A stretch of DNA of 32,376 nt from the IMG/VR virus record IMGVR_UViG_3300029526_000003, positions 1 through 32,376 of that record; one strand, given 5' to 3'. This document shows positions 1-32,376 of the stretch, piece by piece (within the stretch, counting starts at the first letter, position 1; the number at the start of each line of letters is the position of its first letter). The notes under the pieces are model-generated. The model searched no databases, was not told where the DNA came from, and saw nothing but the letters and a program-made list of their open reading frames with translations. Source of the DNA: a virus. A program made the position numbers and the translations under genes.

Positions 1-444
1 TATGAAAAGGTATTAGAGTTAAGAAAAATATTAGAATCTGTATCTGATAAGATTATTCCTGTATGGCATAAGAACAGAGGAATACAAGACTTCAAAGATA
101 TGTGTAAGAAATATCAAGGTAAGGTCGTAGCAATTACAGGATTCAAGAATGAAGATATTAAAGATGAACAATACATTATGTTCTTGAAATATGCAAAGAA
201 ATATAATTGCAAGGTCCATTGCCTTGGTATGACAAGAAAAAAGATATTAGATAAAGTCCCGTTTGATTATTGTGATTCTAGTTCATGGGTACAACAATCA
301 GTTTATGGGCGTATCAATGGATTAGGTAAAGTTTCAAGAGAAATGTCAAGGACAAATAGAGAACAAGTAATGATAGAGAATTATAAGCAATTTATGCAAA
401 TGCAAGAAAAATATGAACAAAAATGGAGGAACGTGAATAAATAG
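1..444 (+). CDS. dpdA: DpdA-like DNA-guanine transglycosylase (TGT fold), C-terminal part; 5' end cut by the window edge
   Basis: Frame 1 is open from nt 1 to TAG 442-444. HCLGMT and PFDYCDSSSW resemble the TGT/DpdA G-x-G segment and catalytic-Asp segment. The matching N-terminal half (IIDSGAHSF) lies at the right window edge. Confidence 0.6.
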   Translation, partial: YEKVLELRKILESVSDKIIPVWHKNRGIQDFKDMCKKYQGKVVAITGFKNEDIKDEQYIMFLKYAKKYNCKVHCLGMTRKKILDKVPFDYCDSSSWVQQSVYGRINGLGKVSREMSRTNREQVMIENYKQFMQMQEKYEQKWRNVNK

Positions 445-892
445 AAATAAGACGATAGCTTTTAATGCAGTAATGTGTGCATTGTATGTTGTAGCAACGA
501 CAATTAACCCAATCGGATATGGAGTATTTCAATTTAGGGTTAGTGAACTAATGACAGTGTTTCCTGTTCACTTCAAAAAAGCACGTATCGGATTGCTTTT
601 AGGAGTAGCAATAGCAAATGCAATGAGTCCTTTAGGCTTTATAGATGTATTTTGTGGGACATTAACGGCAGGATTATTGTATTACCTAATTGATAGACTA
701 CCGGTACACAATTACATCAAATACATTCTATATTCATTAGAAGTAGGATTAATTATTGGTTGGGAATTACAGTTGGTATATCATATGCCATTCTTATTAA
801 CATTCTTTACTACATTTATTCCGGAAATGATTCTATGTATTATCGGTGATTTATTAGCAAAGAAATTAAAGCATTATGTAAGTATTGATTAG
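437..892 (+). CDS. queT: QueT-like queuosine-precursor (preQ0/preQ1) transporter, ECF S-component type
   Basis: AFNAVMCALYVVATT...GVFQFRVSELMTVFP matches the QueT signature as I recall it, and the protein is multi-TM. The first ATG (473) has no SD and truncates TM1. GGAGG 425-429 plus 7 nt points to ATA 437, the first codon after in-frame TGA 434-436. Confidence 0.7.
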   Translation: MNRNKTIAFNAVMCALYVVATTINPIGYGVFQFRVSELMTVFPVHFKKARIGLLLGVAIANAMSPLGFIDVFCGTLTAGLLYYLIDRLPVHNYIKYILYSLEVGLIIGWELQLVYHMPFLLTFFTTFIPEMILCIIGDLLAKKLKHYVSID

Positions 893-905
893 AGGTGATA
901 AACAC

Positions 906-1274
906 ATGGCAAGAAAAAAGCTTATTAATCAAAAACAGTTTGAAGCTTTATGTGAAATTCAATGTACAAAAGATGAAATCTGTTCAGTGCTAGATGTATC
1001 AGACAAAACATTAGACAGATGGTGTAAAGAAACATATAAAACGTCATTCTCCGATATTTTCAGACAAAAAAGGCAAGGTGGGTGTGCAAGCCTTAGAGCA
1101 AAGCAGTGGAAACTAGCTTCAAAGAGTCCTGCTATGGCTATTTTCTTAGGTAAACAATTCTTAGGTCAAACGGATAAGGTAGAAACACATTTTGACGCTT
1201 CAGAAGTAAATGCAATTAATAAAGCTATGATTACAGATGTAGCAAAAGAAAGAAGAATTGAAGATTTTGAATAA
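906..1274 (+). CDS. terminase small subunit (HTH type)
   Basis: GAGGTG plus 7 nt precedes ATG 906. The N-terminal HTH-like segment (FEALCEIQCTKDEICSVLDVSDKTLDRWCK) and the position directly before terL are typical. The track's TTG 885 extension has no SD. Confidence 0.7.
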   Translation: MARKKLINQKQFEALCEIQCTKDEICSVLDVSDKTLDRWCKETYKTSFSDIFRQKRQGGCASLRAKQWKLASKSPAMAIFLGKQFLGQTDKVETHFDASEVNAINKAMITDVAKERRIEDFE

Positions 1275-2592
1275 GCCTGCGCCTTTCAATCAAAAGCAAT
1301 TAACTTATCTTAAAAAGACATTTAATTCATGGCTTAATGTATTAGAAGGTGGTAAGCGTGGAGGAAAGAACGTACTCAACACATACGCTTTCTGTATCGC
1401 TTTAGAAACACATCCGGATAAGTTCCATTTGATAGCAGGAACAGATACATCATCTGCACGTGTAAATATTGGAGATTGCAACGGATACGGATTGCAGAAC
1501 TATTTCGCTAACAGGTTCAAAGTAGGAAAGTATGAAGGTAAAGACTGCTACTACATCAATACAAAGGCGGGTGAAAAGGTTGTATTCTTTGCCGGTGGTG
1601 CTAAAAAAGGTTCAGAGAATGCAATACATGGTTATTCTTATGGAATGGCATACGTTACAGAAGCAAACCTTTGTTGCATAGAGTTTTTACAAGAAGTGAT
1701 GGATAGAACGATAGCGTCAAGCAATCGAAAGATATTTCATGATTTAAACCCAAAAGGCAAAAATCATTGGTATTATACAGATTTCTTACAGTATCATGAG
1801 GAGCAACAGAATAAAGATTCTACATATGGTTACAACTACGGGCATACCACCTTAGTTGACAATTATTCTTTAAGTGATGAGAAGATAATAACAGTCTTGA
1901 AATCATACGATAAGAATAGCGTTTACTACAAAAGGGACATAAAAGGACAAAGGGAAGAAGCCGAAGGACTTGTGTTCCCTTATTTTGCTAATGACTGCAA
2001 ACCTTACCTATTTAAATATCAGAGTCTAAAAGAAAAGATGAATGAAAAAGGAAAAAGGTTCAGTCATTTAATCATTGGAGTTGACTTTGGAGACAATGGC
2101 TCGAAATACTCGTGGCACTTAACAGGATTCACAAATGATTGGGATTATATGTGGGCACTTGATGAAGGAGACATGGCAAAGTCAAATGCAATAGACGCAA
2201 CAAAGTTCTGCAAAGCATTTGTAAGATTCTATAAGCGTTGTATTGAATGTTACGGGTATGTTGAGTGGATATTCTGCGATAGTGCTTCTAATACACTTAT
2301 AAACACGCTTAGAGCTTATTTTTACGCCGAAGGATTAGACGGTAGTATAATTGCACCGGTAAAGAAGAATGAGCTTACAGACCGTCCTATAACGGTTGAT
2401 AGCTTACTTGTTACAGGAAGATTGAAGATAGAAGAACATTGTAAGAACTTAATAAACGCATTGAGTGAATTAGTTTGGGATGAAAAGAAAGATATCCCAA
2501 AGGATGAGAACGTAAACAATATCAATGATGATTGGGATTCGTTCTGCTATACATTTATCACACATAGTGGATATATAGATTTAAGGAGGTAA
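1258..2592 (+). CDS. terminase large subunit (PBSX/Terminase_3-like)
   Basis: 444 aa with a Walker-A-like GGKRGGKN near the N-terminus. The TTG start overlaps the terS end. Followed by the portal gene. Confidence 0.8.
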   Translation: MKILNKPAPFNQKQLTYLKKTFNSWLNVLEGGKRGGKNVLNTYAFCIALETHPDKFHLIAGTDTSSARVNIGDCNGYGLQNYFANRFKVGKYEGKDCYYINTKAGEKVVFFAGGAKKGSENAIHGYSYGMAYVTEANLCCIEFLQEVMDRTIASSNRKIFHDLNPKGKNHWYYTDFLQYHEEQQNKDSTYGYNYGHTTLVDNYSLSDEKIITVLKSYDKNSVYYKRDIKGQREEAEGLVFPYFANDCKPYLFKYQSLKEKMNEKGKRFSHLIIGVDFGDNGSKYSWHLTGFTNDWDYMWALDEGDMAKSNAIDATKFCKAFVRFYKRCIECYGYVEWIFCDSASNTLINTLRAYFYAEGLDGSIIAPVKKNELTDRPITVDSLLVTGRLKIEEHCKNLINALSELVWDEKKDIPKDENVNNINDDWDSFCYTFITHSGYIDLRR

Positions 2593-5699: not shown

Positions 5700-6044
5700 A
5701 TGAACGAATATAAAGTATACGTATCCTTGTCAAACGGATACATCACATCTATTAATTCAGAAATCTTCTTATCACAAGAAGAAATTGACACAATGACAGA
5801 GATTGATAAGGGGCAAGGCGATAAATACGCTCATGCTCAAAGCCAATACCTAGAAAAAGGATTAGTTGATGAACAAGGTCGATACAATTATAAATTTGTA
5901 GAAGGTAAAGTAATTGAGGTTGCAGAAGCAGAAAAGCCTACAATTGAAGAACCAAAAGCAGTACCAACCGAGCAAGAGAAGATTAATGCACAATTAATGT
6001 TACAAATTGCACAGTTAAAAGCTCAAATGAATGGGGTGAAGTAG
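5700..6044 (+). CDS. XkdW-like small fiber-associated protein
   Basis: TAGGAGGAAG SD plus ATG. About 114 aa, located directly upstream of an XkdX-like ORF as in PBSX-type fiber modules. Confidence 0.5.
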   Translation: MNEYKVYVSLSNGYITSINSEIFLSQEEIDTMTEIDKGQGDKYAHAQSQYLEKGLVDEQGRYNYKFVEGKVIEVAEAEKPTIEEPKAVPTEQEKINAQLMLQIAQLKAQMNGVK

Positions 6045-15532: not shown

Positions 15533-16546
15533 ATGTCTTATTTCGGATTAGATAAAGATTTCAATATCGTTACACATCTAGCACCTTATAACGTGCAGTG
15601 GAATAGGCGATATTATGAAACAGGCGATTTCGAGATTTATATTGATATAGGGCAGTATTCGAGCGATATCAAATACATTTATTCAACAGAGGATAAAGAG
15701 TTAGGAATCGTTGATATACCACATTATTCCGTTTCAAATAACACGAAACAAATATTGCTAAAAGGTTCTTTCTTTGAAAAGATTCTAGCAGATGATTGTA
15801 TTTATCCTACATTCTCAAGTAGCGGAAAGATTGTTGATGTAGTCAAAAAGTTATTAGACAAGTATTGCTCATGGAAAATGGGGTATAGATATGATGAATC
15901 CATTACCGATAGAGTAGATTTTCAAGAAACAGGAGCGAACCTTGACGAGAAGCTTTATGAGTTGTTATATCCGTTAGAATTGTCTTTTCGTATAGAATAT
16001 GACTATGTATCAAGTACGTTCACATTCGTGTTATATCGTGGCCGTGACTTAACTCAGAACAATGTAGATGGAAACAACTTTGTTACCTTTTCTACAGAGT
16101 TTGGAAACATTGAAGAACCGGATGTTATGATTGATTCTAGTAAATACAAGAACTATGCAATCGTTTGTGGTGAAGGACAGTCAGAAGAACGTATATACGT
16201 TGAATATGACGCTAGAATAGATAAGAATGAGCGAATTAAGAAATTGTTCGTAGACGCACGTTCTGAGCGCATGGGGGACGATATTACACTTGAGGATTAC
16301 AAGAAAGCATTGATTCAAAAAGGGATTGAAAAACTAGCAGATTGTCAAATTGAAGAGAATGTAAATTTCGGATTAAATACGGATTCATACGAATACAAGG
16401 TTGATTTTGATTTAGGTGATAAGGTGGATGTTATAGTAGCAGATATTGGACTAGTAATGACGGCTAGAATTAGAAATATATTCGAAGTCATTAAGAGTGG
16501 ATACAGAACCCTAGAATTAGAGGTTGATAATTTAAAAATCATGTAA
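15533..16546 (+). CDS. tail-tip protein (Sipho_Gp37-like)
   Basis: 337 aa following Dit. The N-terminus (FNIV...YNVQWNRRYYETGDFEIYI) resembles the ReqiPepy6 Gp37-like family as I recall it. Confidence 0.55.
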   Translation: MSYFGLDKDFNIVTHLAPYNVQWNRRYYETGDFEIYIDIGQYSSDIKYIYSTEDKELGIVDIPHYSVSNNTKQILLKGSFFEKILADDCIYPTFSSSGKIVDVVKKLLDKYCSWKMGYRYDESITDRVDFQETGANLDEKLYELLYPLELSFRIEYDYVSSTFTFVLYRGRDLTQNNVDGNNFVTFSTEFGNIEEPDVMIDSSKYKNYAIVCGEGQSEERIYVEYDARIDKNERIKKLFVDARSERMGDDITLEDYKKALIQKGIEKLADCQIEENVNFGLNTDSYEYKVDFDLGDKVDVIVADIGLVMTARIRNIFEVIKSGYRTLELEVDNLKIM

Positions 16547-20089: not shown

Positions 20090-20154
20090 TTCATGAATTA
20101 TGGCTTTTTTTTATCCTTTTTCTTGTGTATGATGTAGAAAAAGAGGTGCAAGAA

Positions 20155-21252
20155 ATGGCAGTAAAAAAAGATGAAATAACAGGTAAATGGATGTATTACG
20201 GCTCGTACAAATTGAATGGAAAAACCAAACAATATAAGAAGCGTGGTTTTGAAAAAAAGAAGGACGCAATAAAAGCGGAGATTATCTTCAAAGAGAATTT
20301 AAAAGAACCAAATGCAACTATCACATTCAATGAATTATCTTATCAATATCAAGTATACTCTGAAAAGAGAATTAAAGAAAGCTCATACTTGACGCAAAGA
20401 GCTATATTGAAACTTTGGGAAGATAGATTGGGAGAATGTGAAATAAGAAAGATTACAACAAGTGAAGTTGAATCTGTAATAAATGAATTGTTGGAATCAA
20501 TGTCTTTTTCTACAATGGTAAATTGCTATGCAAAATTCAGAGCGGTTCTTAACTATGCAGTAAGACAAGGATATATTCAAGCGAATCCATGTAATAAGAT
20601 TGATTTGAAGAAAGATCCAAACGAAAAGAAAAAAGAAATGAAGTATTGGACAGTAGAACAGTTCAACAAATTTATTGTAAATGAAGAAAAAGAAGTATTT
20701 CATTTGTTGTTCACAAATCAATTCTACATGGGCATGAGAATAGGCGAAGCGTTGGCTCTGCAATGGAAAGATGTTGACCTTATTAATAATACTATAAAGA
20801 TAAGTAAAACGTGGTCAAACGCGCTGCGCAAGGCTACAACGCCTAAGACAAATAACAGTTATAGAACGATTACTATGCCACAATTCTTAGTGGATGAGTA
20901 CAAGATATTTAAAGAGCAGATACACGCAAATGCAGATGATTATATTTTCGGAACTACACTACCGTTCTATGTCAATAGGGTACAAGATGAATTGAAACGT
21001 GTAATCAGACTAACGAATATCAAGTTACAAAAGGATGAGCAGATACCTATTATTAGAACACATGATTTAAGGCACTCCTGCGCAAGTTATATGATTAATA
21101 ATATGGTAACAAATGGAACAGTGAATTTCTCGGTGTATGACATTGCGAAAAGATTAGGTGATAACCTTGATACAGTGCTATCAGTATACGCTCATTGGCT
21201 ACCTCAAGCCGATAAAGGTATTGTACAATTTATGGAAAAGAATGCCGAATAA
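20155..21252 (+). CDS. int: tyrosine recombinase / phage integrase
   Basis: AAGAGGTG SD plus ATG 20155. N-terminal SAM-like domain. Catalytic region MRIGEALAL, HDLRHSCASYMI and LSVYAH (R..H-x-x-R..Y). Confidence 0.85.
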   Translation: MAVKKDEITGKWMYYGSYKLNGKTKQYKKRGFEKKKDAIKAEIIFKENLKEPNATITFNELSYQYQVYSEKRIKESSYLTQRAILKLWEDRLGECEIRKITTSEVESVINELLESMSFSTMVNCYAKFRAVLNYAVRQGYIQANPCNKIDLKKDPNEKKKEMKYWTVEQFNKFIVNEEKEVFHLLFTNQFYMGMRIGEALALQWKDVDLINNTIKISKTWSNALRKATTPKTNNSYRTITMPQFLVDEYKIFKEQIHANADDYIFGTTLPFYVNRVQDELKRVIRLTNIKLQKDEQIPIIRTHDLRHSCASYMINNMVTNGTVNFSVYDIAKRLGDNLDTVLSVYAHWLPQADKGIVQFMEKNAE

Positions 21253-30787: not shown

Positions 30788-30997
30788 ATGGAGGTGACGC
30801 AAATAGAAATGAATTATGAAGAAAGGATTAAAGATTTAATTTCTAAAAACAATAAACTAGGAAGGGCAAATATTAAGCTTAATCAGACTTTAAAAGAAAG
30901 AAATGAGACCATTCATAATCAAACACATGAAATTAATAAATTAAAGAATAAAGTTGGCGAATTAGAAGATAAATTAATGAGGATGTATACATCATGA
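30788..30997 (+). CDS. coiled-coil hypothetical protein; start ambiguous
   Basis: ATG 30788 has no SD. The internal GGAGGTG 30790-96 would serve in-frame ATA 30803 (6 nt) or ATG 30809 (12 nt). Confidence 0.5.
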   Translation: MEVTQIEMNYEERIKDLISKNNKLGRANIKLNQTLKERNETIHNQTHEINKLKNKVGELEDKLMRMYTS

Positions 30998-31320
30998 GTA
31001 CATATGAAGATGTAAAACGACACTTCTTGTGTGAATGCCAATCGTACACATATTATGAGCAGAAGATAGCAGAGCTACAAAGGGATGAAGCAATTTATCC
31101 TTTAAAAGCCGAGCTATTCTTAGCTCATGCAGATTATGCAAGAAGAATGAATTATGTAAAAGACAAATTAAGCCAACTTGATGATACAACTCGAACAATG
31201 ATTGAGTATAGATATATAAAGGGATTCAGTGCAGAAAAAACATCTAATATTGTGGGTTATGCAAGAGAAGAAATCCCAAGAAAGATAAACAAGAATTTAA
31301 AGAAAGTGCTCACAATGTGA
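30994..31320 (+). CDS. late transcription regulator (sigma-70 region-4 / RinA-ArpU-like)
   Basis: The C-terminal MIEYRYIKGFSAEKTSNIVGYAREEIPRKINKNLKKV is a region-4-like HTH. It is the last gene before the packaging module. Confidence 0.55.
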   Translation: MSTYEDVKRHFLCECQSYTYYEQKIAELQRDEAIYPLKAELFLAHADYARRMNYVKDKLSQLDDTTRTMIEYRYIKGFSAEKTSNIVGYAREEIPRKINKNLKKVLTM

Positions 31321-31329
31321 GCACTTTTT
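31306..31329 (+). terminator. intrinsic terminator
   Basis: GTGCTCAC-aat-GTGAGCAC hairpin plus TTTTT; overlaps the regulator's stop codon. Confidence 0.7.
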
Positions 31330-31346
31330 CATGTAATAATTATTTT

Positions 31347-31422
31347 AGCAGGATAGAGCAGTAGTAGCTCACTAGTCTTATTAGCTAGAGGTCGAATGGT
31401 GCAAATCCTTCTCCTGCAACCA
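31347..31422 (+). tRNA. non-canonical tRNA, anticodon UAU (reads AUA), with an initiator-tRNA-like scaffold and encoded CCA
   Basis: Hand-folded cloverleaf, listed 5' to 3'. Acceptor stem AGCAGGA/TCCTGCA with an A1xA72 mismatch. TA at positions 8-9. D arm GAGC-AGTAGTA-GCTC, then A. Anticodon arm CTAGT-CTTATTA-GCTAG. Variable loop AGGTC. T arm GAA(T)GG-TGCAAAT-CCTTC. Discriminator A, then CCA. Total 76 nt. Confidence 0.7.
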
Positions 31423-31504
31423 TGATTACAAAGCCTATCAGTAAGTCCTTCCCAAATTAGATGTTAAATACCAACAATGGCATATTATTAGGCTTTGATA
31501 TATT

Positions 31505-31529
31505 ACCGAGCGTTTGTCTCGGTTCTTTT
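31505..31529 (+). terminator. intrinsic terminator downstream of the tRNA
   Basis: ACCGAG-cgtttgt-CTCGGT hairpin plus TCTTTT. Confidence 0.6.
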
Positions 31530-31556
31530 AATAATAAGGAGGAGAATGAGGAATAA

Positions 31557-32060
31557 ATGGAGATTATAAAATTAAAAATCAATGACATTACACCTTACGA
31601 AAAGAACGCAAAGATTCATACTGAAGCACAGATTGAACAAATCAAGAAATCTATTCAAGAATTTGGTATGAATGACCCAATCGCAGTATGGGGGGGGAAC
31701 AATACCATAGTTGAAGGGCATGGACGATTAGAAGCATTAAAGCAATTAGGCTATACATCAGTTGACTGTATCAGACTAGACAATTTGACAGATGAAGAAA
31801 GAAAAGCTTATACACTTGCTCATAATAAAATCAATATGAATACAGGATTCGACATTGATTTATTAGATGAAGAATTAGACAGTATCGAAGATATTGATAT
31901 GTCTGATTTTGGTTTTACTGAACAAGATATTGATTGGGATAATGTAGAAGATTTAAGTGATGATTCTTATGAAGAACCTCAACATGAAATGTGGAAATGC
32001 CCTCAGTGTGGACACGTAGATAGAAAAGAACACTTTAAAGGAGTTCGTGACAATGAATAA
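31557..32060 (+). CDS. ParB-like nuclease-domain (ParB/Srx) protein with a C-terminal CxxC zinc ribbon
   Basis: AAGGAGGAG SD plus ATG. Motifs PYEKNAKIHTEAQIEQIKKSI..FG..DPI and IVEGHGRLEA. C-terminal WKCPQCGH. Confidence 0.7.
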   Translation: MEIIKLKINDITPYEKNAKIHTEAQIEQIKKSIQEFGMNDPIAVWGGNNTIVEGHGRLEALKQLGYTSVDCIRLDNLTDEERKAYTLAHNKINMNTGFDIDLLDEELDSIEDIDMSDFGFTEQDIDWDNVEDLSDDSYEEPQHEMWKCPQCGHVDRKEHFKGVRDNE

Positions 32061-32072
32061 AACTACACCTAA

Positions 32073-32376
32073 TTGAAAATATTTCTAAGCGCATTAGAGG
32101 TGCAACGAGGTAAGAAATCATTATGTAGAATCTTAGTCGAGCAAGGCATTCAAATGAAATATAACCTTATGTCTTATTACTACCTAAGAAAGAATTTAAA
32201 TGACGCATATTTCATAAAAGAGAACAGTCAATTAGTAATAATAGACAGTGGAGCGCATAGTTTCCAAAAGGGTGCGAAAGTTGATTGGGTAGAATATACC
32301 AAGCAATACGCAGAATTTATAAAAGAATTTGATGAGGACAAGGTTGTAGGATATTTTGAAATGGATGTAGACAACA
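32073..32376 (+). CDS. dpdA: DpdA-like DNA-guanine transglycosylase, N-terminal part; 3' end cut by the window edge
   Basis: Open from 32073 to the window end. (M)KIFLSA...LMSYYYL...VIIDSGAHSF resembles the TGT/DpdA DSGGFQ substrate-Asp motif. The start is uncertain (TTG 32073, ATA 32079, GTG 32100 or ATG 32154) and no clear SD is present. Confidence 0.55.
   Translation, partial: MKIFLSALEVQRGKKSLCRILVEQGIQMKYNLMSYYYLRKNLNDAYFIKENSQLVIIDSGAHSFQKGAKVDWVEYTKQYAEFIKEFDEDKVVGYFEMDVDN

Follow-up and report, generated by a model that had tools for sequence, protein, structure and literature searches.

The 32,376-nucleotide stretch of DNA analyzed here (the window) carries, at the head of the packaging operon, a cassette of three genes in the order ParB-like protein, DpdA, and QueT. 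We consider it probable (roughly 0.7) that this cassette serves to import a 7-deazaguanine base through QueT and to insert it into the phage DNA by DpdA, with the ParB-like protein aiding the process. We read the window as the full circle, bar 8 nt, of the genome of a temperate gut siphovirus infecting Bacillota (~32.4 kb, 33% G+C). The features of the cassette and its surroundings are as follows.

30994..31320, plus strand: small regulator-like protein, 108 aa (phrog_36 transcriptional regulator, weak, E = 8e-4)
~31303-31335: hairpin GTGCTCACAATGTGAGCAC and T-run, 3' of the 108-aa regulator-like gene (5747-5771 in sibling contig L004)
31477..31530, plus strand: promoter-like hexamers ATGGCA-16-TATATT with TG, then hairpin ACCGAGCGTTTGTCTCGGT and a T-rich tail
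31557..32060, plus strand: ParB-like protein, 167 aa (phrog_620, TIGR00180)
32073..32376, plus strand: N-terminal part of DpdA (residues 1-101 and 1 nt), TTG start, IIDSGAHSF inside
1..444, plus strand: C-terminal part of DpdA (residues 105-251 and stop), HCLGMT and PFDYCDSSSW inside
425..430, plus strand: GGAGGA, Shine-Dalgarno sequence for QueT, inside the 3' end of DpdA, with a 6-nt spacer to ATA 437
437..892, plus strand: QueT, ECF-type S-component for queuosine precursors (PF06177)
906..1274, plus strand: terminase small subunit (phrog_309, phrog_606; gene call of 122 aa in L004)
1258..2592, plus strand: terminase large subunit (PF03237 and PF04466 in L004; phrog_2)

The DpdA gene lies across the two ends of the window. 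The circular genome is 32,384 bp long, and the 8 nt TCTTAGGC are absent from the window where the circle was cut open; owing to this loss, a direct join of the window ends leaves the DpdA reading frame shifted. In the sibling contigs L004, L005, L008, and L009, TCTTAGGC is present between the last and first bases of the window (the counterpart in L007 is TCTTAGGT), and the protein junction reads ...MDVDN-ILG-YEKVL..., residues 102–104 (ILG) being encoded across the missing nucleotides between 32376 and 1. A simple circular join was rejected, as it breaks the frame and the sibling contigs supply the missing 8 nt. A megablast search with both window ends against GenBank phages gave zero matches. 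The gap is a trimming gap, and the gene itself is unbroken. The earlier note was right in taking the two halves as parts of one real gene, although they do not join in frame without the 8 nt. Reassembled DpdA comprises 251 aa and is intact in four sibling contigs (the gene call in L004, 6598–7272, is intact with 224 aa). Its start is TTG 32073 (MKIFLSALE...) and not ATG 32154, homologs keeping the MKIFLSALE N-terminus; no Shine-Dalgarno sequence is found near this TTG.

The three TGT-type motifs noticed earlier are indeed present in the claimed order: IIDSGAHSF at 32238–32264, HCLGMT at 217–234, and PFDYCDSSSW at 259–288. DpdA matched phrog_887 over residues 1–245 (E = 4.8e-39). A tblastn search of 2.3 Gb matched the DpdA proteins of phiFN37, BCD7, BcepGomr, and CAjan/Seurat with E values of 1e-17 to 1e-6 (9e-8 for BcepGomr and 1e-6 for CAjan/Seurat), and phmmer on a local set gave 1e-10 to 6e-11 against validated phage DpdA (1e-10 for CAjan). 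In CAjan, deletion of dpdA abolishes dPreQ0 (PMC7544227). Among 22 homologs, reaching the DpdA proteins of CAjan, BcepGomr, BCD7, and Dp-1, every sequence has D58, S59, H127, P191, and D196, and conservation reaches 90% or more at H177, G180, T182, and S197; where other DpdAs have an HG dipeptide, the window protein has HC. The AF2 model of a protein 98% identical to the window DpdA (P0001; pLDDT 92.2) is an 8-stranded barrel, in which D58, D98, H127, H177, and D196 are located at the C-terminal ends of b3, b4, b5, b7, and b8, respectively, according to the DSSP string of the model. A Foldseek search against BFVD matched phage 'queuine tRNA-ribosyltransferases', including Vibrio nt-1 DpdA2. 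The family is large: clustering leaves 1,665 related proteins at the 90% level and 1,604 representatives at the 50% level. Pfam/NCBIfam matches to DUF3843, Lin-15B, and a lipoprotein family were discarded as sub-threshold noise, and no Pfam domain was found in the C-terminal 500 aa of BCD7 'DpdA' (757 aa). These comparisons support the assignment of the window gene as a phage DpdA-type 7-deazaguanine DNA transglycosylase, its activity being predicted.

A direct link between this DpdA and TGT was not recovered by the Pfam, PDB, Foldseek, and hhalign comparisons. The profile check proposed earlier turned out negative for PF01702, the Pfam TGT family (no match at E ≤ 1), and positive for phrog_887; the Pfam TGT model likewise misses CAjan and Dp-1 DpdA. 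Sequence searches of the PDB, using the single DpdA and the 22-sequence profile, gave no credible match (surfactant protein A and U2AF, at E > 0.3, are chance matches), and the deposited bDpdA chain was not retrieved with the profile. Foldseek against the PDB returned no TGT in the top 50 and generic TIM barrels with TM of 0.4–0.55, an outcome that we counted neither for nor against TGT ancestry. Alignment of the DpdA family profile by hhalign with E. coli Tgt, a query sequence confirmed against PDB TGT at 884 bits, covered 16 columns at the DSG motif alone (E = 0.09). The tRNA-TGT zinc site is missing as had been claimed: the window DpdA has no CxCxxC...H motif, its five cysteines being C18, C139, C174, C178, and C195. 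This loss had been described as a pattern shared with bacterial DpdA; the bacterial enzyme (bDpdA), however, has a zinc site (PMC10164549), and the loss is a trait of the short, phage-type DpdA. The window protein, with 251 aa and no zinc motif, differs from the bDpdA pattern of ~400 aa, Ins1, 2, 3, and 8, and zinc. The Actinobacteria loci L085, L086, L090, and L094 were rejected as bacterial dpd islands, their DpdAs being of the short phage type.

The gene that follows encodes a QueT-like membrane protein, as the earlier reading had it. The match to PF06177 (E = 7.2e-28; 98.1 bits against a cut-off of 33.7) covers profile positions 1–140 of 141, and phrog_27044 gave an E value of 1.4e-28. QueT has 151 aa from ATA 437 and 139 aa from ATG 473. 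ATA 437, from which QueT overlaps the DpdA stop by the 8 nt previously stated, is a plausible start: ATG 473 has no upstream site comparable to GGAGGA at 425–430, and ATA 437 lies 1–5 codons from the ATG of homologs and is kept in three sibling contigs. In a crude Kyte-Doolittle scan, hydrophobic segments appeared at ~5–30, 50–85, and 117–142, and the first membrane helix is complete only with the ATA start, half of it being missing with ATG 473. The non-canonical ATA start, or else an N-terminal truncation of the protein, could result in low or no expression. The transport role of QueT is a prediction only, for cellular QueT as well (PMC5699537).

That a ParB-like gene precedes DpdA was also confirmed, with matches to phrog_620 (E = 2.7e-52), TIGR04285 (1.6e-7), and TIGR00180 (E = 1.8e-6); Pfam ParB_N (PF02195) scored 21.3 bits, under its 26.3 cut-off, and PDB ParB/Noc chains gave E values of about 0.01. 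In the protein, an N-terminal ParB domain (ParB/Srx), which contains GHGRLEA, a ParB box-II-like GxxRxxA motif, is followed by an acidic linker and, at the C-terminus, by the zinc-knuckle-like motif CPQCGH...H. Bacterial DpdA requires the ParB-fold ATPase DpdB, a protein of about 370–400 aa with a DGQQR motif, a DndB-type domain, and a C-terminal helical domain (PMC10164549). The suggestion that the window protein is the DpdB counterpart by family did not hold, since it has 167 aa, GHGR instead of DGQQR, and no DndB family among its Pfam/NCBIfam matches. We regard its role as a DpdA partner as plausible but unproven.

Upstream of the cassette, the hairpin GTGCTCACAATGTGAGCAC and its T-run mark the boundary of the early/replication region. 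The promoter-like hexamers and the hairpin ACCGAGCGTTTGTCTCGGT (31477–31523 in this region corresponds to 5921–5967 in L004), followed directly after the T-rich tail by the ParB ribosome-binding site AAGGAGGAG, may form a putative regulated leader of the cassette. An Rfam search around the cassette, up to E ≤ 10, found neither a preQ1 riboswitch nor any other family. A phage tRNA-like gene with the anticodon UAU and a 1:72 mismatch adjoins the cassette; it was rejected as an initiator for the ATA start of QueT, its anticodon stem lacking the three G-C pairs of initiators.

The gene order was examined in 53 IMG/VR loci with 47–99% identity. The ParB-like gene immediately precedes DpdA in 49 of 51 related loci, even at 28–40% ParB identity, and lies no more than 2.5 kb from it in 49 of 51 close and 25 of 34 distant loci. 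The distant loci with ParB beside DpdA include ones bearing queCDE/folE (L065, L079, L081–84, L091, L099, L114, and L119–122); the order is reversed in L071, and ParB is downstream of DpdA in L082–84, L091, and L099. A precursor transporter follows DpdA in 49 of 50 loci. YhhQ/Vut_1 (41 loci) and QueT (8 loci) are unrelated families sharing this slot, and their interchange suggests that transport of this substrate class is tied to DpdA. Fused gene calls, DpdA-QueT (P0127) and DpdA-YhhQ (P0226), exist but may be frameshift or gene-calling artefacts. ATGA stop/start overlaps of ParB and DpdA occur in many relatives. No ParB::DpdA Rosetta-stone fusion was found among 150 representatives; in L044, there is only a truncated ParB(1-64)::DpdA(37-) ORF. 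Prophage copies are present in Lentilactobacillus, Lactobacillus, Lachnospiraceae, and Eubacteriales; the Lentilactobacillus senioris YQ005 prophage (L068), for instance, has the order ParB-DpdA-QueT.

Precursor synthesis genes are missing from this arrangement. As the earlier note had stated, no queC/D/E or folE is present in the phage: tblastn and a maximum-sensitivity HMM search of all ORFs in the genome were empty, and a weak tblastn match of Dp-1 QueE at 16202–16408 was rejected because it falls in a Sipho_Gp37 tail protein. Within ±4 kb, QueC/D/E/FolE were found in none of the 53 related loci. A DpdA homologous to that of CAjan, a QueT importer, and the absence of a de novo pathway together imply salvage of the precursor, and this reading of the genes, put forward earlier, is well supported by the transporter and synthesis-gene counts. 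Streptococcus pneumoniae and Clostridium are among the hosts that lack preQ0 synthesis (PMC6884629).

On this basis, we propose the following mechanism. QueT would act as a substrate-capture subunit that plugs into the ECF energizing module of the host and would take up preQ1 and/or preQ0, as a 7-deazaguanine base, from the surrounding medium. DpdA, a minimal TIM barrel of 251 aa, would then remove guanine from the phage DNA, double-stranded and already replicated, and put the imported base in its place; the reaction would be the double displacement, similar to that of TGT, that is established for DpdA. The ParB-like protein, which would be translated just ahead of DpdA with translational coupling in most relatives, is probably a factor that binds to DNA or is loaded on it, possibly with nucleotide dependence, and may help DpdA to reach its sites; such a role would parallel those of DpdB with bacterial DpdA and of ParB domains fused to phage methylases. 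The packaged, modified DNA would be resistant to restriction in the next host. The comparisons show the identities of the genes, the lack of a synthesis pathway, and a strictly kept ParB-DpdA-transporter order in which two transporter families interchange; we infer the DNA modification, the identity of the base, late expression, the dependence on host ECF, and the cooperation of ParB with DpdA.

Several other explanations bear on the enzyme itself. It is hardly credible that the split gene encodes an unrelated TIM-barrel enzyme with a coincidental resemblance to the TGT motifs. The lack of a Pfam TGT match, the generic TIM barrels as the sole outcome of the PDB sequence and fold searches, and the non-significant hhalign result would be in line with such an enzyme, but Pfam is equally negative for CAjan and Dp-1 DpdA, and the sequence homology to validated phage DpdAs, the obligatory linkage to a queuosine-precursor transporter, and the linkage to queC/D/E/folE in distant relatives argue against it. 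Modification of tRNA, by which the enzyme would boost queuosine-type modification with imported precursor as an auxiliary metabolic function, is very improbable: the barrel, with its 251 aa, has neither the TGT zinc subdomain nor the tRNA-holding insertions, all of the experimentally tested phage DpdA family members modify DNA (PMC6884629, PMC7544227), and the linkage of DpdA to the packaging genes and a DNA-binding ParB-like protein is tight. The database label 'queuine tRNA-ribosyltransferase' and the adjoining tRNA-like gene would suit a tRNA target, but the anticodon of the latter, UAU, is not a GUN target of queuosine. We think it distinctly unlikely, too, that the cassette yields little or no DNA modification through scarcity of the precursor or poor expression or truncation of QueT. 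Such an outcome would fit the unmodified DNA of phage Orion and the trace modification in phage 7-11 (PMC6884629), the ATA start of QueT or the loss of half of its first membrane helix, and the DpdA TTG start without a nearby Shine-Dalgarno sequence. On the other hand, the three ORFs are intact and conserved in the four sibling contigs and the 1,665 related proteins (90% clustering), the residues at the catalytic positions of DpdA are all kept, and no transporter is reported for Orion and 7-11, whereas its retention here in 49 of 50 loci points to selection for precursor supply.

The part played by the ParB-like protein is less certain. It is possible, though less likely than not, that this protein is not a partner: its gene may be a fixed member of the packaging region, or the protein may bind or cleave DNA on its own, with a variable 'DNA-modification island' inserted between ParB and the small terminase; DpdA and QueT would still work as proposed. 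ParB homologs with 59–84% identity occur without DpdA (L106, L128, L130, and the methylase fusions), and very close cousins with near-identical TerS/TerL keep ParB with other cargo in the slot: an ABC-type ATPase and a GNAT acetyltransferase in L106, a Dam-like methylase and a SAM synthetase in L128, and neither DpdA nor a transporter in L130. DpdA is present in only 14 of the 59 ParB-seeded loci, the hallmarks of DpdB are missing, and the DpdA of phage 9g needs no partner to insert preQ0 in E. coli (PMC6884629), indicating that a ParB partner is not generally required. A partnership is favored by the 49 of 51 DpdA loci with ParB directly upstream even at 28–40% ParB identity, and by the adjacency of the two genes far from the terminase (phiFN37), in reversed order (L071), or with ParB downstream (L082–84, L091, and L099). 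The ParB ORF exceeds 300 aa in 24 of the 59 ParB-seeded loci; the one examined, that of L107 (405 aa), is fused in a single polypeptide with an N6/N4 DNA methylase, indicating that the ParB domain does act together with DNA-modifying enzymes. We tentatively raise, as a rather unlikely extension of the partner role, that the ParB-like protein is a general nucleotide-dependent DNA-loading adaptor that temperate Bacillota phages encode ahead of varied late DNA-modifying enzymes, a phage counterpart of DpdB. Its partners would be DpdA here and, in other phages, an ATPase-GNAT protein or N6/N4 methylases, whether separate or fused, and a large clade of gut phages would hypermodify its DNA solely with queuosine precursors scavenged from the microbiome, using an S-component on the host ECF motor.

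DpdA-dependent 7-deazaguanine modification of DNA is an established anti-restriction strategy of phages, in which the phages possessing only DpdA are a loose end: the two analyzed were unmodified or modified in trace amounts, and the survey revealed no transporter pattern. The clade of the window is a cleaner case: an importer accompanies DpdA almost without exception, and synthesis genes never do. Human-gut and related metagenomes commonly contain this clade, and prophages occur in culturable lactobacilli. If the module is active, restriction resistance would hinge on an exogenous micronutrient of the queuosine economy of host and animal, and a phage-encoded ECF S-component would parasitize the transporter motor of the host; the two proteins of 167 and 251 aa would offer a tractable minimal system in which to study the need of DNA transglycosylases for a helper with a ParB fold. 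Should the adaptor role and scavenging be true, phage anti-restriction would depend on the preQ1/preQ0/queuine pool of the gut. If inactive, the module is merely another annotated DpdA cassette.

Comparison with known systems places the cassette among close precedents. A phage QueT beside DpdA, which the earlier note pointed out, is not new: the pair is already found in Dp-1 (gp6/gp7), CAjan encodes YhhQ, and phiFN37 shares the layout. Both transporters adjoining phage DpdA (Dp-1 and CAjan) and phages possessing only DpdA have already been published. In Streptococcus phage Dp-1, which contains dPreQ1 in its DNA (PMC6884629), QueT (gp6; 33% identical to the window QueT) directly adjoins DpdA (gp7) with overlapping frames, as in the window, and the host is also a Firmicute. 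Dp-1 differs in encoding FolE, QueD, QueE, QueC, and a QueF-like enzyme as well, its own synthesis genes making the transporter accessory; in the order QueT then DpdA, with no ParB-like gene beside DpdA; and in being virulent with a 56.5-kb genome and a DpdA of 311 aa that is about 21–25% identical. Escherichia phage CAjan (Queuovirinae) has a homologous DpdA and a phage-encoded preQ0 transporter, YhhQ (PMC7544227), but possesses the full de novo pathway, yhhQ being dispensable (PMC7544227), and has no ParB-like neighbor; its DpdA of 306 aa is 27% identical. Fusobacterium phage phiFN37 (OR492271) agrees with the window in layout and logic: a ParB-like protein (47% identical), DpdA (37% identical), and a transporter follow one another with no queCDE/folE nearby, though the transporter is of the YhhQ/Vut_1 family and an extra DUF6884 gene is present. 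This cluster and the terminase are 7 kb apart, and the genome, of 85 kb, has two further ParB paralogs; the record is annotated only automatically, and we found no published study of the module.

The DpdA-DpdB system of Salmonella Montevideo resembles the cassette in that a TGT-like transglycosylase inserts preQ0 and a ParB-fold partner is encoded adjacent to it (PMC10164549), and some bacterial dpd clusters embed yhhQ (PMC10164549, PMC5699537). Its bDpdA, however, has about 400 aa, four insertions, and a structural zinc site, and its DpdB, a DndB-like ATPase, has the DGQQR motif as well as a helical domain at the C-terminus. The whole system belongs to a restriction-modification island (DpdC-K), whereas the window proteins are minimal, with a ParB of the classical GxxRxxA type. 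The phages possessing only DpdA share with the window a DpdA without any preQ0 or G+ synthesis gene (PMC6884629), for which the authors proposed a host-made or imported precursor (PMC6884629). Of the two analyzed, Orion was unmodified and 7-11 carried about 50 modifications per 10^6 nt (PMC6884629), and in the published survey YhhQ homologs did not correlate with any phage group (PMC6884629); in the window clade, by contrast, the transporter is near-obligatory (49 of 50 loci), and so is the ParB-like gene. The phage fusions of a ParB domain with a DNA methyltransferase (phrog_498; L107–L113) have a ParB N-terminal domain 59–64% identical to that of the window and occupy the same site ahead of the terminase, joined to a DNA-modifying enzyme. 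There, the partner is a covalently fused, SAM-using N6/N4 methylase, and in the window it is a separate transglycosylase. Judged from its genes, the cassette most likely represents a known anti-restriction system in a compact form that relies on salvage alone.

Three co-oriented genes lie at the ends of the window, as the earlier note had described. They and the other principal genes of the genome are as follows.

31557-32060 (+): ParB-like ORF
32073-32376 and 1-444 (+): split gene (DpdA), leaving the window at the 3' end and continuing from base 1
ending at 892 (+): membrane-protein ORF (QueT)
906-1274: small terminase, downstream of the module
1258-2592: large terminase, downstream of the module
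20125-21249: tyrosine integrase

When base 32376 is joined directly to base 1, the halves of the split gene fall in different frames. Contigs crossing the junction were sought with the ParB protein in public assemblies and with the last 27 bases in an IMG/VR scan. Five were found, and all five carry 8 extra bases (TCTTAGGC in four and TCTTAGGT in the fifth), which restore the sequence ...MDVDN-ILG-YEKVL...; the homologs of other phages have exactly three residues at this position. In addition, ENA contig k127_44175, from a k=127 assembly, is 32,511 bp long (32,384 + 127), a length consistent with a 32,384-bp circle, the 32,376 of the window plus 8. We infer that the window is the whole circular genome of the phage, minus a few bases lost by trimming, and that the split gene is intact. 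With the gene boundaries corrected, the observation of the earlier note is confirmed. The genes outside the module are those of a temperate siphovirus, in which the tyrosine integrase, a Sak-like annealing protein, a replication initiator, SSB, and a small regulator precede the module and the structural genes.

The N-termini of the DpdA homologs read MK(I/V)FLSA(L/I)E, and the equivalent in the window begins at TTG 32073, 12 nt past the ParB stop; many relatives have an ATGA overlap of the ParB stop and the DpdA ATG. Because the homolog start matches this TTG, DpdA has 251 residues and not the 224 counted from ATG 32154. QueT likely starts at a rare codon, ATA 437 (start region 425-475, +). 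The frame is open from there, with a strong GGAGGA 6 nt before it, and the QueT homologs of four loci (L051, L052, L058, and L104) and of phage Dp-1 have an ATG within 1-5 codons of this position. The ATA is kept in three sibling contigs despite synonymous changes nearby. ATG 473 has no ribosome-binding site before it and lies six residues downstream of the Pfam QueT profile start, and its use would cost half of the first hydrophobic helix. Given the ATA start, the previously proposed 8-nt overlap of DpdA and QueT is correct.

Upstream of the module, a tRNA-like gene at 31347-31422 (+) scored 48.8 bits against Rfam RF00005, with no call by ARAGORN. From its anticodon loop, CUUAUUA, the anticodon is read as UAU, for the Ile codon AUA. 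Position 37 is U, pair 1:72 is an A:A mismatch, and the CCA is encoded; sibling and cousin contigs (L004, L005, L010, L011, L104, and L115) contain exact copies. ATA makes up 18% of the Ile codons in 16 long ORFs. At 31477-31530 (+), a G+C-rich hairpin of 6 bp with a T-rich tail adjoins a promoter-like site on its downstream side and directly precedes the ribosome-binding site of ParB. The segment resembles a regulated leader or attenuator; it matched no Rfam family, and neither a preQ1 riboswitch nor any other Rfam family was found around the module.

There is good support for assigning the split gene to the phage DpdA family. The full protein matched phrog_887, 'queuine tRNA-ribosyltransferase', over residues 1-245 in PHROGs (E = 4.8e-39), and tblastn against 50,697 phage records matched 72, including phiFN37 (37% identity), BCD7, BcepGomr, and the Seuratvirus group containing CAjan, in which deletion of dpdA abolishes all preQ0 in the DNA (PMC7544227). 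Pfam and NCBIfam gave no credible match; the silence of the Pfam TGT model is uninformative because it also misses the CAjan, Dp-1, phiFN37, and BCD7 proteins. In a 22-sequence alignment spanning phiFN37, BCD7, BcepGomr, and CAjan-type phages, D58, S59, H127, P191, and D196 are invariant, and H177, G180, T182, and S197 reach 90% conservation or more. The three motifs (IIDSGAHSF, HCLGMT, and PFDYCDSSSW) behind the earlier DpdA-type reading, which the PHROG and CAjan-group matches bear out, are among the conserved positions, along with two further motifs. A confident AlphaFold2 model (pLDDT 92.2, pTM 0.90) of P0001, 98% identical to the window DpdA, has eight strands, with the conserved acidic and His residues at the C-terminal ends of strands 3, 4, 5, 7, and 8. 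In TIM barrels, active sites lie at C-terminal strand ends. Foldseek against predicted viral structures found phage 'queuine tRNA-ribosyltransferases' of Arthrobacter, Mycobacterium, Microbacterium, Dinoroseobacter, and Sulfolobales viruses, and the Vibrio nt-1 protein that serves as the DpdA2 reference.

The searches did not directly connect the protein to TGT or to the bacterial DpdA of known structure: PDB sequence and profile searches were empty, Foldseek against PDB returned only generic TIM barrels (TM 0.4-0.55), and the hhalign alignment with E. coli Tgt was confined to IDSGAHSF opposite LTDSGGFQVF (E = 0.09). For the TGT ancestry of DpdA we rely on published work. As had been noticed, the protein has no zinc motif, but the zinc-less pattern cannot be extended to bacterial DpdA; CxCx2Cx22H is present in the bacterial crystal structure and is common to that whole family (PMC10164549). 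It is the short phage DpdAs that have lost the zinc subdomain.

The membrane protein was rightly recognized as QueT: it scored 98.1 bits against a Pfam cut-off of 33.7 bits, covers the whole model, and is 33% identical to the annotated QueT of Dp-1. The absence of queC, queD, queE, and folE from the genome was likewise upheld by tblastn with two seeds per gene and by HMM searches of every ORF of at least 40 aa at maximum sensitivity, all below 10 bits. A single weak QueE match, inside a Sipho_Gp37 tail protein, was rejected. QueT is a predicted preQ1/preQ0 transporter only, and YhhQ is reported to be preQ0-specific (PMC5699537); the inserted base could be preQ1 or preQ0.

We put the probability that the module directs 7-deazaguanine modification of the phage DNA from an imported precursor at 0.7. 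This interpretation, already that of the earlier note, is supported by homology and unusually clean synteny. The family numbers 1,665 proteins at E ≤ 1e-5 (90%-identity clusters), mostly of 245-265 aa and without a Pfam domain; 50% clustering gave 1,604 representatives at E ≤ 1e-3, 623 of these at E ≤ 1e-10. The ORFs of 53 IMG/VR loci with 47-99% DpdA identity were scored with HMMs made in-house. A ParB-like gene is directly upstream of DpdA in 49 of the 51 loci having upstream DNA, the exceptions being a truncated ParB::DpdA ORF and a locus with one gene between. Downstream, 49 of 50 loci carry a transporter, YhhQ/Vut_1 (PF02592) in 41 and QueT in 8, and preQ0 synthesis genes occur within 4 kb in none of the 53. 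Since two unrelated transporter families of the same substrate class alternate in one slot, import appears functionally tied to this DpdA, and we regard the alternation as the strongest argument for that tie. In 34 more distant loci taken from genomes (hosts including Lentilactobacillus senioris, Lactobacillus, Lachnospiraceae, Eubacteriales, and other Clostridia), a ParB-like gene lies within 2.5 kb of DpdA in 25, queC/D/E/folE occur in 17, and a transporter in 12; the ParB-DpdA pair thus persists whatever the precursor route. GenBank phage phiFN37 has ParB, DpdA, DUF6884, and YhhQ, 7 kb from the terminase.

Several loci depart from this arrangement. In L044 (3752-4648, an IMG isolate-genome prophage), ParB residues 1-64 are joined to DpdA residues 37-251 in a single ORF, which seems to have arisen by deletion and not as a designed fusion. 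In some cousins, a phiFN37-type DpdA and QueT are separated by a conserved ORF of 100-106 aa (L104 4378-4677; L124 5112-5429), which contains a CxCPxGK motif and has no Pfam or PHROG match. In L124, an additional C-terminal region is also fused to a QueC-like domain, suggesting that such phages may import intermediates other than preQ0 and finish them. L076-L078 (Clostridia/Oscillospiraceae MAG contigs) have ParB, DpdA, an intervening ORF, and QueC, followed by YhhQ in L077 and L078, and lack QueD, QueE, and FolE; this pairing of a lone QueC with a transporter hints that the salvaged compound is CDG, or a different substrate of QueC, and not preQ0. The database entries P0127 (440 aa), P0226 (465 aa), and BFVD A0A6G5XZE9 (449 aa) are called as DpdA-QueT or DpdA-YhhQ fusions, which may be genuine or may be frameshift or gene-calling errors. 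The DpdA homologs P0210, P0261, and P0128 have two to five tandem 'M(K/N)(I/V)(F/Y)L(S/A)G...' first-strand segments before the barrel.

Whether the ParB-like protein is a true functional partner of DpdA is about an even call. As a control, 59 loci were seeded with the ParB protein, and only 14 contain DpdA; set against the 49 of 51 DpdA loci with ParB, this indicates a one-sided dependence, in which the DpdA clade nearly always has ParB and ParB is independent of DpdA. The ParB ORF exceeds 300 aa in 24 of the 59; the one long ORF examined (L107) is an N6/N4 DNA methylase fusion followed by a SAM synthetase. The remaining loci have a separate methylase (L118 and L128), an ABC-type ATPase with a GNAT acetyltransferase (L106), or nothing recognizable, and the terminases of L106 and L130 are near-identical to those of the window phage. 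ParB could be a generic helper for late DNA-modifying enzymes, as the methylase fusions and the requirement of bacterial DpdA for the ParB-fold ATPase DpdB in insertion (PMC10164549) would suggest; however, in E. coli the DpdA of phage 9g inserts preQ0 by itself (PMC6884629), which speaks against a strict requirement. Alternatively, ParB may be a fixed gene beside a variable cargo slot.

The cousins' cargo between ParB and the small terminase (L106 3501-4573, L107 2992-5403, L128 3468-5179, and L118 1905-2882) comprises, in L106, the ATPase and acetyltransferase, together phrog_11143 (function unknown), and elsewhere a ParB::N6/N4-methylase fusion or separate methylase and then a SAM-synthetase-like gene; the slot appears to behave as a variable DNA-modification island. 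The ParB protein has a GxxRxxA motif (GHGRLEA) and a C-terminal CxxCGH...H knuckle, which is also present in cousins with a methylase downstream. It may work like DpdB. By sequence, however, it is outside the DpdB family, with which the earlier note had compared it: the DGQQR motif, the DndB-type domain, and the size of DpdB are all missing.

In the literature outside subscription journals, we found no description of the ParB-DpdA-transporter cassette as a unit, nor of how common it is among Bacillota phages of the gut or of the interchange of YhhQ and QueT. Its elements have precedents. Hutinet et al. (2019) defined a 'DpdA-only' phage group and proposed host-made or imported precursor for it; among these phages, no modification was detected in Orion, and 7-11 had about 50 per 10^6 nt (PMC6884629). 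In a paper on mycobacteriophage, the ORF upstream of DpdA was proposed as a possible DpdB homolog (PMC6392294), and the presence of yhhQ inside bacterial dpd clusters was pointed out in a 2016 review (PMC5699537). CAjan carries yhhQ, which is dispensable (PMC7544227). Dp-1, with dPreQ1 in its DNA, has QueT beside DpdA like the window phage but, unlike it, encodes a full preQ1 pathway. The cassette is thus a salvage-only, minimal variant of a known system, valuable mainly as an abundant, experimentally tractable test case.
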